DNA from: an uncultured Flavobacteriales bacterium
Lineage (GTDB): Bacteria > Bacteroidota > Bacteroidia > Flavobacteriales > UBA7430
Reading direction: 5' to 3'
DNA length: 40,595 bases
Assembly: GCA_963933205.1 (NCBI GenBank)
Contig: CAWVTK010000001.1
Location: 1 to 40,595 of the forward strand
The notes under the pieces were generated by a model. The model was given only the letters and a program-made list of their open reading frames with translations. It searched no databases and was not told the origin of the DNA. Made by a program: the position numbers and the translations under genes. Positions 2,172 through 40,316 of the stretch are shown here, one piece after another. Every line of letters begins with the position of its first letter. Position 1 is the first letter of the stretch.

Positions 2172-2453
2172 TGCTTTGGGGGGTGAGTTTTTACTAATTT
2201 TATACTCGGATCATTTCAATAATCGTACCTAAAATATTTTCTAGGATATTCAGTGCAATCAGGGGGTTTTTATATTCGCTTGTTTTCCAGTACGTTTTTT
2301 ATTACTGGATTAACGAGTACAAATAATCGTTGTCAAATTAAAACAATTAAATAGTAGTGCCCATTTATGTATTGGTAACTTATCTGTGCATGCTTATGTC
2401 TTTTGTCGAAAATTCACTAGTTTTCCGGAGAATATTAATTAACCAATGGACTT

Positions 2454-4711: not shown

Positions 4712-5154
4712 GCCTAAAAACATAATTTTAATTATTCATTTGATCAATACATATAGTTAATTTATGAATTAGAGCTTACCATATTTAATTAACTTAACCA
4801 CTCTAATTTTTAAACGTATTAAGCATTGATAAATTAGTTGCTTTTTTAAAAAAAAAAGTGTATTATTTGTGACAACAGAAAATTAAAAATAATAAGAAAA
4901 CGGATAGAATCGAACAACCAAAAAAATGCGACCTATTTTTAGAACAGGAAATTTAAAATACTGAAACATGTAAGGTGCTAAAAATCAAGTTAAAAATTAA
5001 TGGTTTTGGGGTGTCTATTGATTTATTGTAAACTTTTTTACGCAGCAAAATTCGTTGTTTTGTTTTTCAAACAAAATTAACCTCGTTTGAAAAAGAGTTA
5101 CTTAAATTGATTAAATTTCAGATATCTATTGTTAAATATTAATCCCCCTAAAAA

Positions 5155-5963: not shown

Positions 5964-6109
5964 CTTTTTCTTAGCACATTTATTGACTACACCAGTCTTA
6001 TAGGCTATAAATATAATTTCGGCGTTTTCAATAAGTTTTTTTTTGCAGACCACTTTTTTTAAATCATTTTCAATAAATTTTTTGCGTTAAACATAAACCT
6101 CCCTCGATT

Positions 6110-15100: not shown

Positions 15101-18007
15101 GCTGGGGCTTTATACAAAGGTGCTATGCACGATTTAAGAGTATGGAGTAAGGTAGCAGGCGATATACTAGCCAATCGTTCTATTAACTTGTCTGGAAAAG
15201 AAGCGAATTTAGTTGGATATTGGCCAATGGATGAGCTTAGGTCAAATCCAAAAGACAAGGCCAGATATAGACATGCACAAACATCTGCACAGTGGGCTGT
15301 AGAAAGTGAAAACAAAGCTCTGAAATTGGAGTACAATCCAGCTTTAATAGAAGACTTCTCGGCTCTTCAAGATTCTTCTACGCTCGCCATTGTAAATGGA
15401 AGTGACTTTACAGTAGAACTTTGGTTTAATACTGATGTTTCAAATAATCAAACCCTTTTATCTTTGGGCTCTTGGGATCTTGGAGATAAGTTTGAAACCT
15501 GGTCTTTTGACATAAACGCTGGAGCAATAGAAATTTTCCAAGGGGATACCATTTATGCACCGGTTTTAAATACCAACTCCACATACAACGATGGAGAATG
15601 GCATCATATGGCCCTGGTTAAAAATGCCCGCTCAAACACCAGACTTTATGTAGATGGTGTAGAAGTGGATCAGGTAGACTCAGAATTTGTGGGAGGTATT
15701 ACATCTTCTTCGACGTATTTAGGTCATCGAAGAATTGTGGATACAGAAACGGCTTCTGTCGGATACACAAACCATTATATGGGATTAATTGACGAGATAA
15801 GAATTTGGAATATCGCAAAGTCTCACGACAGAATATTGTCTGAGATGAACAGTAATATATCCGAAAAGCTTGGTTTGAGTCAGTCTACAGATTTCAATCA
15901 AATTCAAATGAACTCCGAGATCATTAATTCTTCCGAATTAGATGTTCCTTTAATTAGAGCCTCAGAACTTAAAACCTCGGTTTCTTTTCACGACGTTTCC
16001 AATGGAGATCAAATCTCTATTAATTTAACGGAGTCTTTAAGTAGAATTGAAAACACTTCAATTGATTTTACGCTTCAAAAAGTTAGAGATTTATCTGGTA
16101 ACCTGATTGAATCGCCTATTACATGGACTACTTACATAGACAAAAATCAATTGATTTGGGACAATGAGTTTATAGAAATGGAAAAATTACTTAGCGAGTC
16201 TCTTTCGTTCACAACCCACATAATCAATCAAGGTGGTACGGTAGAGAATTTCCAAATCAGTAATTTACCACCTTGGTTAAATGCATACCCTAGCGAAGGA
16301 TTGTTAGATCCAAATTCGTTTACTCAAATTGAGTTTGTTGTAAATGAAGATCTGTTTATTGGCGACTATAAGGAAGACATTTTACTGGTTGGAAACAATG
16401 ACTATGCTGAGCGTATGGAGTTCAATCTTAATGTTGAGATGGAACAACCTGAATATTCTGTTGATCAACAAGACTATGAATATGTAATGAACTTTGTAGG
16501 TAAGGTAACCGTAGAAGGAATTCGTTCTAGAGATGAGAAGGATATATTGTTTGCCTATGTAGGCGAGGAATTAAGAGGAGCAGCTAGTCCAATTTATATT
16601 GAAGAATACGACAGCTATTTAATTTTCCTTTCAGTTTACGGAGATCAAGTAAACGGCGAAGAAGTAAGCTTTAGATTATGGGATGCCAGCGCAGGTAAAT
16701 TCCAAACTAGAGTAAAAATTAATGGTCAGGATCTTCATGATTTCCAACCTAGTTTCGTTATTGGTTCATTTACAGAGCTTACGCGCTTTGAAGCGACCAA
16801 TATTTTAAGACAAGACATCGTTTTAAATGAAGGCTGGAATTGGGTGTCTTTTAACCTAAATTCTTTAGAGGAACAAGACGATTTAGACGATGTATTACAA
16901 GTTTCTACCGTTATGAATCAGGTAGATGGTTCATCCGTTTCTATATTCAAAAATCAATATGCCTTTACTCAATTTGCAGAAATTGATGGATACAATGATA
17001 CCTGGATTGGCTCTTTAACAGAACTTCCTATTACGGATATGTTCATGATTAAAACGCAAAAATCGGATACGATTATTTACGAAGGTAAAATTGTGAATCC
17101 ATCTGAGGTACCAATTGACGTAAGTGCTGGTTGGAACTGGATTAGCTACTTAGGACAAAGAATAATGAGTACGAATGATGCGCTTTCTAGTTTAAATCCT
17201 AGCTCGGGTGATGTAATAAAGAATAAAAGTGCTTTTAGTATGTACGCTTCGGAGAGTCTTGGATGGCTTGGTACTTTAAACAGTATGGAAAGTGGACATG
17301 GATATATGTTAAAAACCGAAAGTACCGGTTCTTTAATTTACCCCGAAAGTTCAATATTTAGAATTCGAGACTACCAACTTAGCAAGAATCAAATTTCCGA
17401 TGAACTTGTTGAAGTGAACAACGCTTTGTATCAAAACTCAATGAGTATGGTTGCGAAAATTGATTTGGAGAAATTTACTCAACCAGATCTTTCAAATGTT
17501 TTAGCCGCTTACAGCGATCAATTGTGTCTGGGTAATATTAATGCTACACAGATCAATGAAGAAGAATCCTTGTACTTCATCACCATTTATGGTGAAGACG
17601 GCTACAATGTTTCGTTTAAATACTTCGATCAGGTTAATGGCGACTCTTTTAATGCAGAAAACACCCTTGAGTTTGAAGCTAATAAATTGATTGGGTCCAT
17701 ACAAGATCCTTATCCGATTATATTAACCGAGAGCCCAGATGATTTTTTGATAGAGTATACTCTAGATGTATATCCAAATCCATTTAAAGAGGAGTTTGAG
17801 GTAGAATTCACACTTGACAATGATGAATTCATTTCTATTGACATCTTTGATGTAACAGGTAGAAAAGTGAAATCTTTATTCAATGGATTACTTAACTCAG
17901 GACTACACAATTTAGATATTGACGCTTCTGATATTGCCAAAGGAAGTTATTTCATTGAATTGAAATTAAACGATTCTAGTTTCAGAAAAATCATTATTAA
18001 ATCATAA
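6110..18007 (+). CDS. Giant (3965 aa) secreted surface protein with FN3-like modules, three LamG (concanavalin A-like) domains, modules B and C, and a type-A T9SS C-terminal sorting domain
   Basis: An uninterrupted 11.9 kb frame in AT-rich DNA. Signal peptide MNVSIFNKFLVFIAFFLFLSNTSFAQ. FN3-like stretches (for example IHLTWNNNSSGVIDHYSIERRQ...YEYRIKA). LamG hallmarks (FTVTFWMK...GVLFS...MDEMVLWRKVLSDEEI, FTIEMWLKP..., FTVELWFN...IDEIRIWNIAKS). The C-terminus is YPNPFKEEFEVEFTL...IDIFDVTGRKVKSLFNG...GSYFIELKLNDSSFRKIIIKS. Confidence 0.93.
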   Translation: MNVSIFNKFLVFIAFFLFLSNTSFAQFSPHNGDIGADESLEWLYDYNGSFKLGVISKNSGNNASAPIAIRISTLIVRDLPCVLGNCNDEPVYWNHVKNLHATNGQFSDLMYIEPTLPGAETTINGWQTLEKIETADGHSTITGSYECCPWYSTCYCPSYTTESRGYDFHVLGRSGEEFKNVTSTINNNYVTVSFDWYDFPENWINSVAQFTVGPQQFQRFIPVDFGTEIAAVTEAVVTDNDVTLVGESSLVSCATDNDHSEKWYAVSQDIYQDTNFHEVDLGDWSDDFSLPILTAENSENIGPNVSFDYKLYYREFGKGCAMQRVFEPEEITTSNLNSIDRIIALNEDDGTVKVLWSHLTSVDKSDVSYIVKRTDDPNLDLEDWRTVYKFEQGVPSINYTLNNGQNVTNGVVDPNDEVNPLGESFSEKGLAGQFIDHTADPEGTYKYSIQAKVITEYVNTNYIQQMESTGAGISFFDDNNQLNIVTPTPLCSGFEIQGVQSIINEEIKFGNEDYEYDNQDHILSFNSPDFFGTQGVSQRVYFYENSELTVPLINPETEEAIIIDGSVSEISGYELPLEDDVFSRTVYGIIEATRTDGKVFRSFKPRVIVGNRKPVPPTVNISSATFEDYVTLRFTNVKEEHNIDHIKIYRTARTPSTSTAPTDSTTYSENFVLDSLILTKEDLQDLIVEAGELVFKDIPDSDNSFSGESTVLCNEYAYQIQSSNCENWSLNDSPFYVEVKGNTKQVTPTLDQDVFELGNPLKDLTSSKGEFPDKIHLTWNNNSSGVIDHYSIERRQYGSEGENAWIQLGSVSTGEKYFQDTYAEANLLYEYRIKAHVGNCETSSPEDPGTQANMVSTHQVGYRRPVGRITGRITYNQTSNPVSDVYVKVEPIINEDQTTNRSLNLESNYGIVRSPIKSDSDLDAFTVTFWMKSMADQQGVLFSRKSTLYDMSLYLDGNAIGYSEYSGSLNETYPAYNLKPEENSWNNVTLTFTTLEDEKQVKFYINGLLMNTYSSQFTPSVFDDFIFGVDRNLNAESSFDGLMDEMVLWRKVLSDEEIQSNYFKFLKTSDDDLIFFIAADEGLGAFSYDISSNTIDVFNKNHLELNSLSLTDTFSIPNHANHFYNDNYNTELLNLDKSTSSGMYDVTNIRYINDGNNFSITPFTILNETYSVIHEFLPAQRTDFIGDQSLLLSAIDFNDLTAITVQGNVFFDVTEENSDVSLIDKTEYQIGVEDVFVKVGGKRIQNDDGEVKTDADGFFSMSIPIGEQCISFEKNGHTFYYGDLEGERDDRYCQEFNFNSEQNLPNFSCNTYKELRGRITGGQMYDSQTIADIQIGFNQSANTIGSVGFDLMPNAASVLDYEGYLVSVQTNVLTGEYHAKLLPIVHKVNSSSWISSNYDVENSYRNQQQLFPTIDMEVKGDNDVNGDFVEEQLSSSIGELASQTITFNKRFDLVYRSNPSILVSQNIAGELAWSTSIGETSIEIDEGFSITTSDSTGYLLGMPVFKEKYGNGTYRYNIEVSEVYTNYGAINSTHDHNSYMYKDQNGASVHDTKQYLNPLQQGDVSIFNTMMKSSTEMMSLSDLNGSVDYEFNPDDPYVFGKEQGYMRKFIIQYQDGSVNAQWPKLSAGQNASTRGDVYAFGDESYGNDFFTFGPQTVDMILRDPSGDGSYSSITEGSTITRTSSVTNVNGYTKDWNFSVGAGLEIGGAIGFSLGAHVETKWSAKAFVTAGMTNSASLTNSSENQITISETYNHTISTNSADWEVGAKGDLYIGESKNLNFGTSKELQFLSTHNCALGGGVFDCLDYPLIKQNKTIRKQYEIDDVTNDTVISILQASALYELSSIPVSNSESIISDSTYSSNGKTYIIHDIEEVGSYQIGTQTAVSIKPGVSTKFAFSNNYIQNYLLTKLALIKNTYLFGEYTVDTDLLPIDHECFGEPSNSTCFDSYEDQSIRNYYTIPETSTEEYYVLPNLTNYDVNTLTAILGSTYQEFQSNFEDADHYIGYSVSNSAINNDEWNSPLISLQSETAGFGFSISEGVTPELVQYLNFVNTGPLFGTGLDIEIDAYLNLNGNSPDPVTAYDNVGAEGSIGDGEASGSISNGVTTVGGSVGSSSEDGVNTVSASGDYSNGVVNAGISVDISIDDDPTNDSYGNEEQLSDLLLNFASVQDFTSVPGFINLNNLIDDLTLDVPEESETIVIPRDKVQFYAQQIKLWKRAMANNELDKIESEFLTNHSISAGVSIEQSHTSVGAYSNTNSITYDLSSTNALGGDFSGHLAVIGFNAGFSYNNKYTLEFKTTTNLSGQSVTTTNYKLSDNDQGDIISIDVNESNYGFGPIFKVQAGATSCPWENVVNAKYIRDFDLYFELKFYDEFVKTGLAMPSQLTLNSNTFDFTFYGSLAENELNVKKASYVDYSRTTALPIKSVFDQKRLDVYNAVKESLLNQHTSMFGSDAPYELSAKTSQRDKPTLDVFPPVLYNVNENEQAAFTLTLGNASEDNSNRMYKIRVIEAENPHGAILKIDGINPNREFTVPAGGSVTKTLTVAKGPDSLNYENLQIIIYPGCQYDWGTSDEYDIADTISFSTYFLPTCTDIVIHDTDDDWLVNNADTNLLTLKLEDYNINYYSLRDVYFDYKFENEPWTPIEPQSNVVNPHFVINNLENFKTFSPLDLYNLLHSDFNLSSVVNTDLYNQLEPKEKCRGGNCAIYNATGLNVHEDWIAWKAVDADTTEYIQGEISRLKTTYLSSEEAVSDNEMLSLRMASTNVLWEVPMVPKDGNYKIRAKSNCGFYTSQTSSQQEEIAVYSLTHDVFSDRIRPELFGSIQPTDGILNPNDDVIVTFNEPINEIAFNTSSAQTYVEVMARKNRTAHTHDSYLYFGSDDSLNIPSGVYLNNSFTIEMWLKPESNGVLFEQSNGTDSEVIKLSVVDFDTDPKLQFEYIHPTDETKNQMVNHSMELPSTGFTHLALAYDAVDHQIIFLDGTGSVATPSYSFNMNYVGDGPIIAGALYKGAMHDLRVWSKVAGDILANRSINLSGKEANLVGYWPMDELRSNPKDKARYRHAQTSAQWAVESENKALKLEYNPALIEDFSALQDSSTLAIVNGSDFTVELWFNTDVSNNQTLLSLGSWDLGDKFETWSFDINAGAIEIFQGDTIYAPVLNTNSTYNDGEWHHMALVKNARSNTRLYVDGVEVDQVDSEFVGGITSSSTYLGHRRIVDTETASVGYTNHYMGLIDEIRIWNIAKSHDRILSEMNSNISEKLGLSQSTDFNQIQMNSEIINSSELDVPLIRASELKTSVSFHDVSNGDQISINLTESLSRIENTSIDFTLQKVRDLSGNLIESPITWTTYIDKNQLIWDNEFIEMEKLLSESLSFTTHIINQGGTVENFQISNLPPWLNAYPSEGLLDPNSFTQIEFVVNEDLFIGDYKEDILLVGNNDYAERMEFNLNVEMEQPEYSVDQQDYEYVMNFVGKVTVEGIRSRDEKDILFAYVGEELRGAASPIYIEEYDSYLIFLSVYGDQVNGEEVSFRLWDASAGKFQTRVKINGQDLHDFQPSFVIGSFTELTRFEATNILRQDIVLNEGWNWVSFNLNSLEEQDDLDDVLQVSTVMNQVDGSSVSIFKNQYAFTQFAEIDGYNDTWIGSLTELPITDMFMIKTQKSDTIIYEGKIVNPSEVPIDVSAGWNWISYLGQRIMSTNDALSSLNPSSGDVIKNKSAFSMYASESLGWLGTLNSMESGHGYMLKTESTGSLIYPESSIFRIRDYQLSKNQISDELVEVNNALYQNSMSMVAKIDLEKFTQPDLSNVLAAYSDQLCLGNINATQINEEESLYFITIYGEDGYNVSFKYFDQVNGDSFNAENTLEFEANKLIGSIQDPYPIILTESPDDFLIEYTLDVYPNPFKEEFEVEFTLDNDEFISIDIFDVTGRKVKSLFNGLLNSGLHNLDIDASDIAKGSYFIELKLNDSSFRKIIIKS
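8807..9305 (+). other. LamG / concanavalin A-like lectin domain 1
   Basis: NRSLNLESNYGIV...AFTVTFWMKSMADQQGVLFS...WNNVTLTF...KFYINGLL...FDGLMDEMVLWRKVLSDEEIQSNY. This is the typical LamG_3 pattern: a candidate sequence, then FT.E.W.., then .DE.R.W...LS..EI. Confidence 0.7.
14714..15235 (+). other. LamG / concanavalin A-like lectin domain 2
   Basis: YLYFGSDDSLNIPSGVYLNNSFTIEMWLKPESNGVLFEQ...FTHLALAYD...GAMHDLRVWSKV...LVGYWPMDE. Confidence 0.7.
15317..15868 (+). other. LamG / concanavalin A-like lectin domain 3
   Basis: ALKLEYNPALIED...GSDFTVELWFNTDVSNNQTLLSLG...GEWHHMALVKNARSNTRLYVDGVEV...MGLIDEIRIWNIAKSHDRILSEM. Confidence 0.7.
16475..17721 (+). other. B-C-C-B module block immediately before the sorting domain of the 3965-aa protein
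   Basis: B-like segments at 16475-16798 (YVMNFVGKVTVEG..DILFAYVGEELRGAAS..LIFLSVYGDQVNGEEVSFRLWD) and 17435-17721 (NSMSMVAKIDL..VLAAYSDQLCLGN..YFITIYGEDGYNVSFKYFD). Divergent C-like segments at 16829-17089 (EGWNWVSFNL...WIGSLTEL...MFMIKT) and 17123-17350 (AGWNWISYLG...GDVIKNKSAF...WLGTLNSMESGHGYMLKT). Confidence 0.55.
17756..18004 (+). other. Type-A T9SS C-terminal sorting domain (Por secretion tail)
   Basis: YTLDVYPNPFKEEFEVEFTLDNDEFISIDIFDVTGRKVKSLFNGLLNSGLHNLDIDASDIAKGSYFIELKLNDSSFRKIIIKS matches the familiar YPNP...(I/V)xIxDxxGRxV...G.Y(F/L)...K(I/L)(I/V)K pattern. Confidence 0.85.
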
Positions 18008-18019
18008 TCCCCCAGAAAT

Positions 18020-28087: not shown

Positions 28088-28164
28088 TGAATTTTATTTT
28101 AGTATTAAAATTAGTACTTTTGGTTAATATTTATTTTTTTGTAGAATTAAACCCCCTTCACCAG

Positions 28165-33881: not shown

Positions 33882-33916
33882 GGCTTTATTAAGTATTAAT
33901 TTATCCCCTCATAAAA

Positions 33917-37913: not shown

Positions 37914-39752
37914 ATGAGGTTTATCATTCTTTTTCTTTTCGCATTTTCTCAATTTTCCTTGGCTCAAAACCATCAGTTAGATAGTATTCAAAAAGTGCTT
38001 TTGACTTCTGATTCGCCTGAGCAAAAAGCTGACATTTATAAAAAACTGGCTTATTACTATATGCCACAAGATTATGGACTTGCTTTGTTGTATGCAGATA
38101 GCTCATTCTATATTTCGCAAAGTATAGGAGACACCATTATGCTAGCCGATTCGTATAGTTTATATGCTACCTTAAAATTAAGACGTGGCGATTTTGACGC
38201 TGCTCAAAAGAATTACAATAGTTATGAAGAATTATTTGAGGGCTTTGCTAATTCCAAATATTTAGCTAATGAAGCTTTTTTAACGGGGGAGTTAGGTGTT
38301 TTTCATTACTACAAGTCAAATTTGGATTCTGCTTTGATTTTTTTTAACAAATCGATTGAAGTAAACACCACACTCAATAATGAAAATGTTGTCGCTAGAA
38401 TGCAATCTAATATTGGAACCATATTGTATCATGATGAGCAATACGATCAAGCATTAGTCTATTTTAGAAATGCACAAGCTATATTCGAAAGTTCTGTTAA
38501 AGACTCCATAGCTTTACTCAATGTATTCAATAATATTGGCTTAATTTTTAACGATTTATCAGACCCATCTAAAGCCATTGATTATTTTAATAAGGGTATT
38601 GATTTGGCTGAAAAACTAAATTCCGACATTAATTTAGAGATGCTCTATTTAAACTTAGGAACTTCTCTGGTAGAGCAAAAGAAATACGATTTAGCGCTTG
38701 ACTTTTTTGAAAAATCTTTAGTCATAAAAAAGAATAACCAAATTCCTTATGGAATTAATTTGCAGCGTATCGCAAATCTATATTTTATGAAAGGCTTACT
38801 AAATGAGTCAAAAAAAGTCTATACTTCATCAATTGCCGAAATGAATAAATACCAAGATGAAATTCATCTTTTAGATGCGCAATTGGGCTTAGTAAATGTT
38901 CATTTAGAACTTAAGGAGTACACTAAGGCTGTTGTTGTGTTAGAAGAAGCTTTAACTAAAGTAGATACAGATAAAAGGGATCAAAAGCTGTTAAGTATCT
39001 ACAAGCAATTAATGCAAACCTATCTTTTAGTAGAAAATATAGAAAAATCAAAATATTATAGTGAACTATTCTTAGTCGTAAACGATTTTGTTAATGATAT
39101 TACCATTACAGGCAAGGTGTATGAAATGGAGAGTAGCTTCCAATTAGCCCAAAAAGAGAATGAGGTGTTAATTCTTCAACAAAGCAATAAAATAGAACGT
39201 AATTATTGGCAAAAACTCCTCCTAGGTTCCGTTGGTATTGGTTTGTTTATTCTAGCAATTTTATTAATTATTATTTTTAGGTCCAGCACGCTTTCTAAAA
39301 ACTTTAAAATTATAGAACTAGAAAATAAAGAGAAAAACACAGAAATACTAAACAATACGATGTTGCTGGCCAAGCAAAATGAAAGTGCTGCAAATTTTCT
39401 ATTAGATCTAAAAGAATTAAAAACTGACTTTTCCTTAACTAATTTAAGCACTTTGCAAGATAAAATTAAAACATCCGTCAGCATTGAAAACTCTTGGGAT
39501 GAATATTTGTCTTCATTTTATTTGTTAAACCCACGATTTATCAGGAATTTAAAAAGCTTAAATATCGAGTTAAGTTCTTCCGAAAAGCGATTGTCTGCGC
39601 TGGTAATACAAGGGCTTACGCTTACCGAAATAGGTAATATTATAAATATTGCACCCTCATCTGTAGGAAAGGCTCGCATAAGACTTCGTAAAAAACTAAT
39701 GTTAAAGAGCAGTGATGATCTTGGTGAGTTTTTAGTATCACTCACCGAGTAG
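37914..39752 (+). CDS. Membrane-anchored TPR-repeat regulator with a C-terminal LuxR/GerE-type HTH
   Basis: 612 aa. N-terminal signal or anchor MRFIILFLFAFSQFSLAQ. About 400 aa of TPR-like helical repeats. A single TM helix WQKLLLGSVGIGLFILAILLIIIF (about 39207-39278). C-terminal LSSSEKRLSALVIQGLTLTEIGNIINIAPSSVGKARIRLRKKL. Confidence 0.85.
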   Translation: MRFIILFLFAFSQFSLAQNHQLDSIQKVLLTSDSPEQKADIYKKLAYYYMPQDYGLALLYADSSFYISQSIGDTIMLADSYSLYATLKLRRGDFDAAQKNYNSYEELFEGFANSKYLANEAFLTGELGVFHYYKSNLDSALIFFNKSIEVNTTLNNENVVARMQSNIGTILYHDEQYDQALVYFRNAQAIFESSVKDSIALLNVFNNIGLIFNDLSDPSKAIDYFNKGIDLAEKLNSDINLEMLYLNLGTSLVEQKKYDLALDFFEKSLVIKKNNQIPYGINLQRIANLYFMKGLLNESKKVYTSSIAEMNKYQDEIHLLDAQLGLVNVHLELKEYTKAVVVLEEALTKVDTDKRDQKLLSIYKQLMQTYLLVENIEKSKYYSELFLVVNDFVNDITITGKVYEMESSFQLAQKENEVLILQQSNKIERNYWQKLLLGSVGIGLFILAILLIIIFRSSTLSKNFKIIELENKEKNTEILNNTMLLAKQNESAANFLLDLKELKTDFSLTNLSTLQDKIKTSVSIENSWDEYLSSFYLLNPRFIRNLKSLNIELSSSEKRLSALVIQGLTLTEIGNIINIAPSSVGKARIRLRKKLMLKSSDDLGEFLVSLTE

Positions 39753-40007
39753 TGTTTTTATAGGCTTTTTAACAATTATACACGATTCGTGAGTTCATTT
39801 TTTTTTGCTTCAAATTTCGGCTGTCACCTAATTTGTGTGTTATTATTTTTACAATGCTTAAGATGTTATTGTATGTCAGTACTTTAATGTAAAAGTTACA
39901 CACAATACTATCTTAACATCTATTTACAAGACTTGGTTTTATAATAGTATGTAATAACTAATATTACATCATTAGTTATGTTACTCATATGGGGATGGGA
40001 GTACTAA

Positions 40008-40109
40008 ATGAATTTCTATAAATCAAATTCATTTATTGTTATCGCACATTTGTTGAATTTTGGGCTTTTGCTCGAATATTTTAAGCGTAATAATTTTCTA
40101 ATCATTTAA
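40008..40109 (+). CDS. Possible 33-aa hydrophobic small ORF immediately upstream of an orphan terminator. Speculative.
   Basis: My translation is MNFYKSNSFIVIAHLLNFGLLLEYFKRNNFLII*. The stop (40107-40109) is followed by TAATCCCGGGGGGATTC and the terminator at 40124. Confidence 0.15.
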   Translation: MNFYKSNSFIVIAHLLNFGLLLEYFKRNNFLII

Positions 40110-40123
40110 TCCCGGGGGGATTC

Positions 40124-40161
40124 AAAGAAGCCGCTTTTTAGTGGCTTCTTTATTTTTGTTT
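40124..40161 (+). terminator. Intrinsic terminator with no annotated gene directly upstream (372 nt after the LuxR-type stop)
   Basis: AAAGAAGCCGC (40124-40134) pairs with GTGGCTTCTTT (40141-40151), including one G-T wobble, around the 6-nt loop TTTTTA. ATTTTTGTTT follows. Confidence 0.7.
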
Positions 40162-40316
40162 ACTCTAGAATTGCTCTGTTTCTTTTTCAATCTAATCGGT
40201 TTTATTAAATTCAAACCTACTCATTGCTCTCTTTTTAGCTCTATTAATGTCCCCGTTATTTATTCTAAATGTTGTAGTCAATTGTTTATATTTACAAAAA
40301 TTAGTCCTCTCAGCTT

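Follow-up and report, generated by a model that had tools for sequence, protein, structure and literature searches.

What ends at an intrinsic terminator that follows no annotated gene? The question is posed by a stretch of 40,595 nucleotides (nt), called the window here, on contig C1 of a metagenome-assembled genome (MAG) from an uncultured marine Flavobacteriales bacterium (2.03 Mb, 36% G+C, 88% complete). In the 564-nt gap behind a gene for a TPR/LuxR-type regulator, an earlier note on this DNA had pointed to such a terminator with a G-rich stretch in front of it. It had proposed either a stand-alone small RNA (sRNA) or a long 3' untranslated region (UTR), with a G-rich seed for C tracts at the translation starts of a gene family. 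A small RNA that ends at this terminator and has the G tract as its core is the part of that proposal that stood, on the grounds of the recurrence of the element as a family and of local sequence constraint. Judged from sequence, the window element is probably a stand-alone sRNA gene and the representative of a new family.

A recurrent hairpin with a G-rich loop

When the sequence was re-read, the coordinates of all features claimed by the earlier note proved correct. The G-rich stretch TAATCCCGGGGGGATTC is present at 40107-40123, and the intrinsic terminator behind it has a 12-pair stem within 40124-40151, a loop of 4 nt and the tail ATTTTTGTTT. The G-rich stretch folds into a hairpin of its own that is separated from the terminator by 1 nt (Table 1). 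The segment that contains both hairpins (40099-40162, 64 nt) has a folding z-score of -4.4, and 0/200 shuffled sequences were equally stable. A stem of AATCC and GGATT had been listed as a caveat, since it might sequester the seed; this stem is in fact the conserved hairpin that defines the family, and it leaves a loop made of G only. As this adjacent hairpin is conserved family-wide, a reading of the locus as a terminator only is insufficient, although transcription may also run into it from the LuxR-type gene. Searches with Rfam 15, in gathering and E-value modes, found no family at the gathering threshold in the window, FopS/GibS and Flavo-1 included, and for the gap together with 15 related loci they returned sub-threshold, terminator-driven matches only.

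When the whole gap was compared by DNA similarity with 40 relatives, it showed no orthologous conservation and gave only terminator-like fragments and one internal paralog. This second case of six G plus terminator (G6 plus terminator) within the same genome was the lead to the multi-copy family. The family module consists of the short hairpin AAUCC-GGGG-GGAUU, followed 1-25 nt on by an intrinsic terminator. From a list of all G6+ tracts, the host genome was found to hold four copies of ATCC(N)GGGGGG(G)AT with a strong terminator within 1-20 nt, at C1:40109 (the window copy), C26:20, C35:2715 and C44:6343. A G6 tract on contig C22 was rejected as a fifth copy, since its surroundings read like the last part of a coding frame.

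The recurrence and its restriction to one lineage were followed through 17 species-level genomes of a single uncultured marine Flavobacteriales family (f1). The exact motif ATCC-N0-2-GGGGGGAT has 18 matches in 10 of these 17 genomes, all of them (18/18) with a terminator downstream, against 0 for the reversed control. Across 384 further genomes of the order, the bare motif is about three times as frequent as its control; most of these matches outside the family fall in coding-like sequence that has no terminator of the family's kind. A covariance model, R1, was built from 13 copies with the window copy left out; it recovers that copy (Table 1) and adds sequence variants in five further genomes, which brings the total to 15/17. 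At E<=1e-5, R1 matches 12/17 genomes of the family and 0/234 other Flavobacteriales. Five lower-scoring R1 matches in the host genome were inspected (30.7-35.8 bits) and lack the G-loop hairpin. Across 185,579 species, an exact class-specific pattern was found in five MAGs only, all labelled 'Flavobacteriales bacterium' and each with two occurrences. A full-text literature search turned up no report of an sRNA with a G loop in Flavobacteriales. As far as sequence can tell, the element is probably a previously uncatalogued multi-copy sRNA family confined to one family of this order.

The hairpin covaries among the copies. All 22 distinct variants (22/22) fold into the same hairpin, with the stem (U-G) C-G C-G U-A A-U A-U and a loop of GGGG, GGG, UGGA, GGAG or GUGGG that is always G-rich. 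Compensatory stem changes replace C-G by U-A in genome G006 and A-U by U-A in the C35 copy of the host genome and a g2 variant, the outer pairs alternate between A-U and U-A, and the terminator stems covary freely. These pairs were tabulated from individual folds; a MAFFT alignment of the hairpins was structurally inconsistent.

Constraint is also visible locally, in comparison with a metagenome contig (Ga0233426) that is 94% identical across the region. The 93 nt from 40064 to 40156 contain a single difference, G>A at 40133, which replaces G-U by A-U at one position of the terminator stem, while 30-nt windows in 39730-39880 and 40150-40185 contain 5-10 differences each. Divergence climbs sharply from 40157, exactly past the U tail, and is fastest in the first ~130 nt behind the stop codon of the LuxR-type gene.

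Promoters and genomic settings of the copies

Putative -33 and -7 elements of the Bacteroidetes sigma-A type precede the window hairpin (Table 1). Their geometry, TTTG-N20-TAATTTTC-N10 followed by ATCC, is like that of class C, one of three classes, A to C, into which copies elsewhere can be sorted by promoter and synteny. Class A is found in four genera (loci L010, L064-L066, L071, L072 and L078) and carries a direct repeat, TTGTTAAnGnTTTGTTAT, with 11-bp spacing, ~25 nt upstream of a GG-N10-GC element (TGGCAA-N5-TAGC/TCGC). Judged by sequence, this layout resembles that of a sigma-54 promoter accompanied by an activator site close by. Class B, in two genera, lies within ~60 nt downstream of a gene for a dehydrogenase-like protein of 400 amino acids (aa) and faces a convergent gene; it carries the conserved element TTTGGCA-N6-TTG(C/T), in most copies with TTGT and in the copy of the host genome as TGGCACGCTTGTTGCT. 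Because they lie between convergent genes, class B copies cannot be 5' leaders or leaders of the opposite strand. Class C forms tandem clusters of 2-3 copies (L088-L092, in G013:C2, G016:C73, G007:C39, G004:C18 and G009:C12). Its consensus Bacteroidetes -7 box, TATATTTG, lies 8-11 nt before the hairpin, and ~22 nt upstream of that box is the palindromic box AAAAA(A/T)TGAGTGA-N2-3-TCACCTAT, also cited as TGAGTGA-N-TCACCTAT and TGAGTGA..ACCTAT, where a transcription factor probably binds.

Control of classes A and B by sigma-54 can be hypothesized from these elements. The host genome does contain rpoN, and the strict sigma-54 motif occurs there six times, the same frequency as for the reversed control. 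For the window copy a sigma-54 promoter was rejected: the candidate, TGGGCT-N5-TCGA, has GA as its -12 element, and its GG (40062-40063) is replaced by CA in the 94% relative.

A different trap is set by the complementary strand. Two low-scoring R1 matches (G008:C1:430798-430862 and G009:C27:2328-2391) are C7-C9 leaders behind bidirectional terminators, and these leaders are near-perfect reverse complements of the sRNA hairpin. A C-leader in this position mimics a G tract plus terminator and could mislead automated annotation. For the window element and for classes A, B and C this explanation was rejected, as none has a gene start on the opposite strand; the minus strand of the window copy holds just a tiny open reading frame (ORF) of <30 codons. 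The bias in orientation is strong, with the G orientation before terminators and the C orientation before start codons, an asymmetry that speaks for a role of the RNA and against a palindrome in the DNA. Runs of five or more C (C5+) have a terminator downstream in just 3/364 cases.

Two loci of the host genome, C99:87-153 (minus strand) and C39:2922 (plus strand), carry ATTCATTCCCCCC and then an intrinsic terminator, a C6 run in an RNA-like orientation. These could be RNAs complementary to the G-loop sRNAs, acting as sponges, or simply 3' ends.

C-tract leaders as candidate targets

The earlier note had also pointed to C tracts close to the translation starts of the family; at initiation regions of the secreted-family genes, this pattern turned out to be genome-wide and statistically strong. 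With the longest ATG ORFs of >=120 aa taken as 1,424 putative starts in the host genome, C5+ runs occur 0-19 nt before the ATG 18 times, against one G5 run, and further upstream they are sporadic (0-1 per 5-nt bin). Within the window C5 tracts as such are not enriched (12 matches, 18.8 expected) and are unusual only in their position before starts. The bias extends to the class of protein. Genes with a C5+ run in the last 30 nt before the start encode a signal peptide in 15/19 cases (odds ratio [OR] 8, p=4e-5), with a median length of 760 aa, and 10/19 belong to one 58-member network of modular secreted paralogs, with the genes of the window among them (OR 31, p=4e-10). A tail for the type IX secretion system (T9SS) was rejected as the common denominator, as the type-A tail (PF18962) is present in 1/19 and the type-B tail (PF13585) in just 2.

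The complementarity goes beyond the homopolymer. AG follows directly after the C run in 7/19 leaders, compared with 21/343 runs elsewhere (p=2e-4), and CCCCCAG complements the conserved sRNA segment CUGGGGG. Some leaders match almost the entire hairpin as its reverse complement, such as AAATCCCCCAGGAAAT-ATG on C79 of the host genome and CCCCCCCCCAGGGATT-ATG in G009:C27. Across genomes, CCCCC-N1-12-ATGAA exceeds its reversed control by 368:219 (1.68-fold) within the family and by 788:739 (1.07-fold) outside it (p=4e-6). The expectation that G tract and C tracts would be conserved jointly held at the level of the family and failed in genus g5 (G010, G014), where C-leaders occur and no G-loop sRNA was found by R1 or by a scan for G6...T5.

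In the window, a tract of C or CU precedes the start by 4-8 nt in seven leaders; they belong to the secreted-family genes 2171c, 6110, 18020, 28165, 33917 and 40317 and to the non-secreted gene 5155. The two leaders that had been singled out before, those of 5155 and 18020, are as described, with AATCCCCC at 5141-5148 and 18006-18013, each 6 nt before the start. Ranking by duplex energy was rejected as evidence of targeting, as coding controls yield as many strong duplexes.

Two further observations concern leaders of this kind. The 12 nt directly before the ATG of the next gene (40303-40314) differ from the 94% relative at 10 positions, while the preceding 115 nt differ at one, and this hot spot of divergence coincides with a putative sRNA target site, the TCCTCTC leader. 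At C36:13250-13260 of the host genome, the ATG of a 971-aa secreted protein is preceded, at a distance of 3 nt, by a C11 homopolymer. A run of this length is sufficient for length variation by strand slippage, and pairing or expression could be tuned in this way.

Table 1. Positions in the window of the proposed sRNA, its candidate target leaders and other features of the gap
Feature	Position	Strand	Remarks
G-loop hairpin AAUCCC-GGG-GGGAUU	40108-40122	+	stem 40108-40113/40117-40122 (RNAfold); family-defining motif, proposed seed
Rho-independent terminator	40124-40161	+	stem 40124-40135/40140-40151; U-rich tail to ~40161
R1 match	40105-40157	+	42.3 bits, E ~1e-5 per genome; window copy outside training set
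Putative -33 element TTTG	40067-40070	+	Bacteroidetes sigma-A type, read from sequence; 20 nt before -7-like box; same in 94% relative
Putative -7 box TAATTTTC	40091-40098	+	consensus TAnnTTTG, one mismatch; 10 nt before ATCC; same in 94% relative
Candidate target leader AATCCCCCAG	18006-18015	+	ends 4 nt before ATG 18020, 3002-aa secreted protein; predicted duplex -16.0 kcal/mol
Candidate target C6 tract	2178-2183	-	6 nt before ATG 2171, secreted protein
Candidate target C5 tract	28152-28156	+	8 nt before ATG 28165, FAS1 protein with signal peptide
Weaker candidate target AATCCCCC	5141-5148	+	6 nt before TTG 5155 (start codon uncertain), cyclic nucleotide monophosphate (cNMP)-binding, non-secreted protein
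CCTCCCTC leader	6098-6105	+	4 nt before ATG 6110, 3965-aa T9SS protein; would pair through G-U wobbles only
C4 tract ATCCCCTC	33905-33908	+	8 nt before ATG 33917; duplex -16.2 kcal/mol
TCCTCTC leader of next gene	40305-40311	+	ATG 40317; fast-diverging
TPR/LuxR-type gene	37914-39752		stop codon at 39752; TPR domains confirmed; 564-nt gap downstream
Conserved upstream zone	39880-40063	.	0-3 differences per 30 nt against 94% relative; includes the inverted repeats at 39954-39979 and at 40005-40035; no match in other genomes
33-codon ORF	40008-40109	+	judged not a gene

Readings of the locus and known systems

We consider the chances somewhat better than even that the segment ~40100-40160 of the plus strand is a stand-alone sRNA, a diverged and species-specific paralog of the family, that represses genes with C-tract leaders. 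Regulation of such leaders by a G-loop sRNA is plausible from sequence, from which we also infer the transcription start, the pairing and the direction of regulation. Transcribed from a Bacteroidetes-type promoter of its own, TTTG-N20-TAATTTTC, the window sRNA would be ~55-60 nt long and consist of the hairpin and the Rho-independent terminator, with a run of 6-8 G forming the loop and the 3' arm. The G loop would nucleate pairing with C tracts of the consensus (A)AUCCCCC(AG), 1-20 nt upstream of the starts of large signal-peptide proteins, where they would occupy the place of the Shine-Dalgarno sequence in other phyla. Pairing would then extend into the 3' arm and into the CU on the 5' side, occlude the initiation region and lower the translation of surface and secreted proteins. 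Paralogs with different promoter boxes could let several signals converge on one regulon.

It could further be speculated, and here we would sooner expect to be wrong than right, that the C tract, at the Shine-Dalgarno position, is a private address on the mRNAs of fast-evolving, module-shuffling giant secreted proteins. It would be read, through pairing that starts in the loop, by 3-5 sibling G-loop sRNAs that stand behind sigma-54-like promoters, sigma-A promoters with a palindromic activator box or plain sigma-A promoters. Several environmental signals would in this way be integrated post-transcriptionally to remodel the surface proteome, and new paralogs would join the regulon by keeping the C tract.

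Several observations weigh against a repressor acting from this locus. The window copy is the weakest clear member of the family (42.3 bits, G6, GGG loop), carries none of the promoter boxes conserved in classes A, B and C and is without an ortholog in the six remaining genomes of its genus. For the neighbouring TPR/LuxR-type regulator, no ortholog exceeds 31% identity among the 185,579 species representatives, and its locus is specific to this species or population. Conservation against the 94% relative continues for ~180 nt beyond the predicted start on its 5' side, which may point to a longer transcript or to regulatory sites in that zone. Plain duplex energies fail to separate initiation regions from coding controls, and the evidence for pairing consequently rests on the position of the motif. 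Genus g5 has an excess of C-leaders (42:25) and yet no detectable G-loop sRNA, so that the link between sRNA and C-leaders holds at the family level only. Finally, the C-tract leaders could have been inherited by paralogy instead of being selected for pairing.

Some of these points lend themselves to other explanations. The hairpin and terminator might be the 3' end of the TPR-LuxR mRNA, which would then carry a ~400-nt 3' UTR with a role in cis, for example in stability, or release a 3'-UTR-derived sRNA. Such an arrangement is suggested by the absence of a strong terminator strictly between 39752 and 40124, where there is one weak 7-pair candidate (40059-40076), by the upstream reach of conservation to ~39880 and by class B, whose copies always lie within ~60 nt after the same 400-aa gene; known families also hold 3'-derived members (FopS-14, PMC11697453). 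We nevertheless regard it as unlikely, and favour the stand-alone gene, because a UTR of this kind would begin with the ~130 nt that diverge fastest and because a near-consensus, conserved -33/-7 promoter lies directly before the hairpin. Most paralogs, moreover, have conserved promoter boxes of their own, and several lack a co-oriented gene upstream.

The hairpin may instead be a decoy or recognition site for a protein, for example one with an RNA-recognition motif (RRM-type), so that the RNAs titrate the protein and the C-leaders are regulated independently. We give this little credence, as each RNA carries one hairpin, unlike multi-site sponges, and as the complementarity reaches past the homopolymer, with CCCCCAG enriched at initiation regions and near-full reverse complements of the hairpin on C79 and in G009:C27. 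It would suit a hairpin that is invariant while the flanks able to extend pairing vary, the C-leaders of g5 and the non-discriminating duplex energies, and sRNAs of Bacteroidetes are known to associate with the protein RbpB (PMC11697453). Hardly any weight is left for the window copy as a family duplicate in decay or without function, or as a chance look-alike beside a terminator, with no role at this locus. Its score, the lowest among the clear copies, its missing class-specific boxes and its restriction to one species would fit decay; the fold (z = -4.4), the R1 E-value of ~1e-5 and the single, structure-preserving change in 93 nt, between flanks with 5-10 differences per 30 nt, would not.

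Among the other parts of the gap, a 33-codon ORF had been noted and is present, although as a gene it finds no backing: a search of the 17 family genomes gave no homolog (best E 0.02), and the ORF is missing from the other sRNA loci and shows three nonsynonymous and no synonymous changes against the 94% relative. The AT-rich hairpins and the crossing complementarities of 8 nt listed in the earlier note likewise exist, and as functional parts they lack comparative support; AT-rich inverted repeats of 7-9 nt are of the kind expected in an AT-rich stretch of 564 nt. The upstream 348 nt of the gap fold marginally better than shuffled sequences (z = -1.86, 5/100). Two perfect inverted repeats were seen in this part. 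One, of 11 nt (TAAATGAATTT / AAATTCATTTA, 40005-40035), spans the start of the 33-codon ORF. The other is a 9-nt hairpin (39954-39979) whose arms are the same in the 94% relative, with both differences in the loop.

Marine Flavobacteriales are major degraders of algal organic matter. To our knowledge, almost nothing is known of post-transcriptional control in this group, and nothing at all in its uncultured lineages. If the proposed reading is true, a whole sRNA regulon would have been read from genomes alone, with a multi-copy G-loop sRNA family on one side and, on the other, a complementary C tract that marks large proteins of secreted or adhesin-like type, dozens in all. Such a regulon would mirror the well-known sRNAs with C-rich loops, and it would place a dedicated regulatory tag at the initiation region of mRNAs in a phylum poor in Shine-Dalgarno sequences. 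The complementarity of seed and leader would give simple, testable predictions, and R1 can be used to annotate G-loop RNAs in metagenomes and metatranscriptomes.

How does the family compare with known systems? Qrr1-5 of Vibrio are sigma-54-dependent sibling sRNAs with a shared seed. The G-loop family resembles them in its siblings with a shared seed, in the GG-N10-GC element of class A and in the TGGCACGCTTGTTGCT of the class B copy in the host genome. The likeness is limited in that dependence on sigma-54 is hypothetical here, TTGT stands in place of TTGC in most class B copies, the GG of the window copy is not conserved and the seeds and targets are unrelated. Within Flavobacteriales, Rfp18 of Flavobacterium psychrophilum is reported to tune the expression of secreted metalloproteases and has a secreted adhesin as a predicted target (PMC9723704). 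It is 97 nt long with four hairpins and a predicted pairing region in an AU-rich stem-loop, and its published sequence lacks the AAUCC-GGGG-GGAUU module (PMC9723704).

A precedent in the phylum is provided by FopS/GibS of Bacteroides thetaiotaomicron, multicopy sRNAs that pair at initiation regions (PMC11697453). Shared with the G-loop family, besides the phylum, are a short seed with a Rho-independent terminator (FopS is ~65-70 nt long) and many paralogs per genome. The FopS/GibS genes are mostly intergenic, with one derived from a 3' end, and repress the translation of mRNAs for cell-surface proteins (PMC11697453), as is proposed here. The seed of FopS is, in contrast, a single-stranded 5' stretch that targets SusC-like transporters, whereas the G-loop family would use a hairpin loop of G only. 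The two have no similarity in sequence or to the Rfam models, and they occur in gut Bacteroides and in uncultured marine Flavobacteriales, respectively.

In the form of the seed, the family resembles the C-rich-loop sRNAs, such as sX13 of Xanthomonas (PMC3771888), LhrC1-5 of Listeria (PMC4132741), RsaE/RoxS and 6C (PMC6486639). These also have a homopolymer-like seed in a hairpin loop, act independently of Hfq and recognize a complementary motif at or near ribosome-binding sites; LhrC is, in addition, multicopy and partly in tandem and controls surface and adhesin genes. The polarity is mirrored, with G in the G-loop RNA and C in the mRNA. As Bacteroidetes largely lack Shine-Dalgarno sequences, the C tract is not a ribosome-binding signal, unlike the motif in the targets of C-rich-loop sRNAs. 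The G-loop family, as proposed here, works like FopS and mirrors the C-rich-loop sRNAs and is a member of none of these groups.

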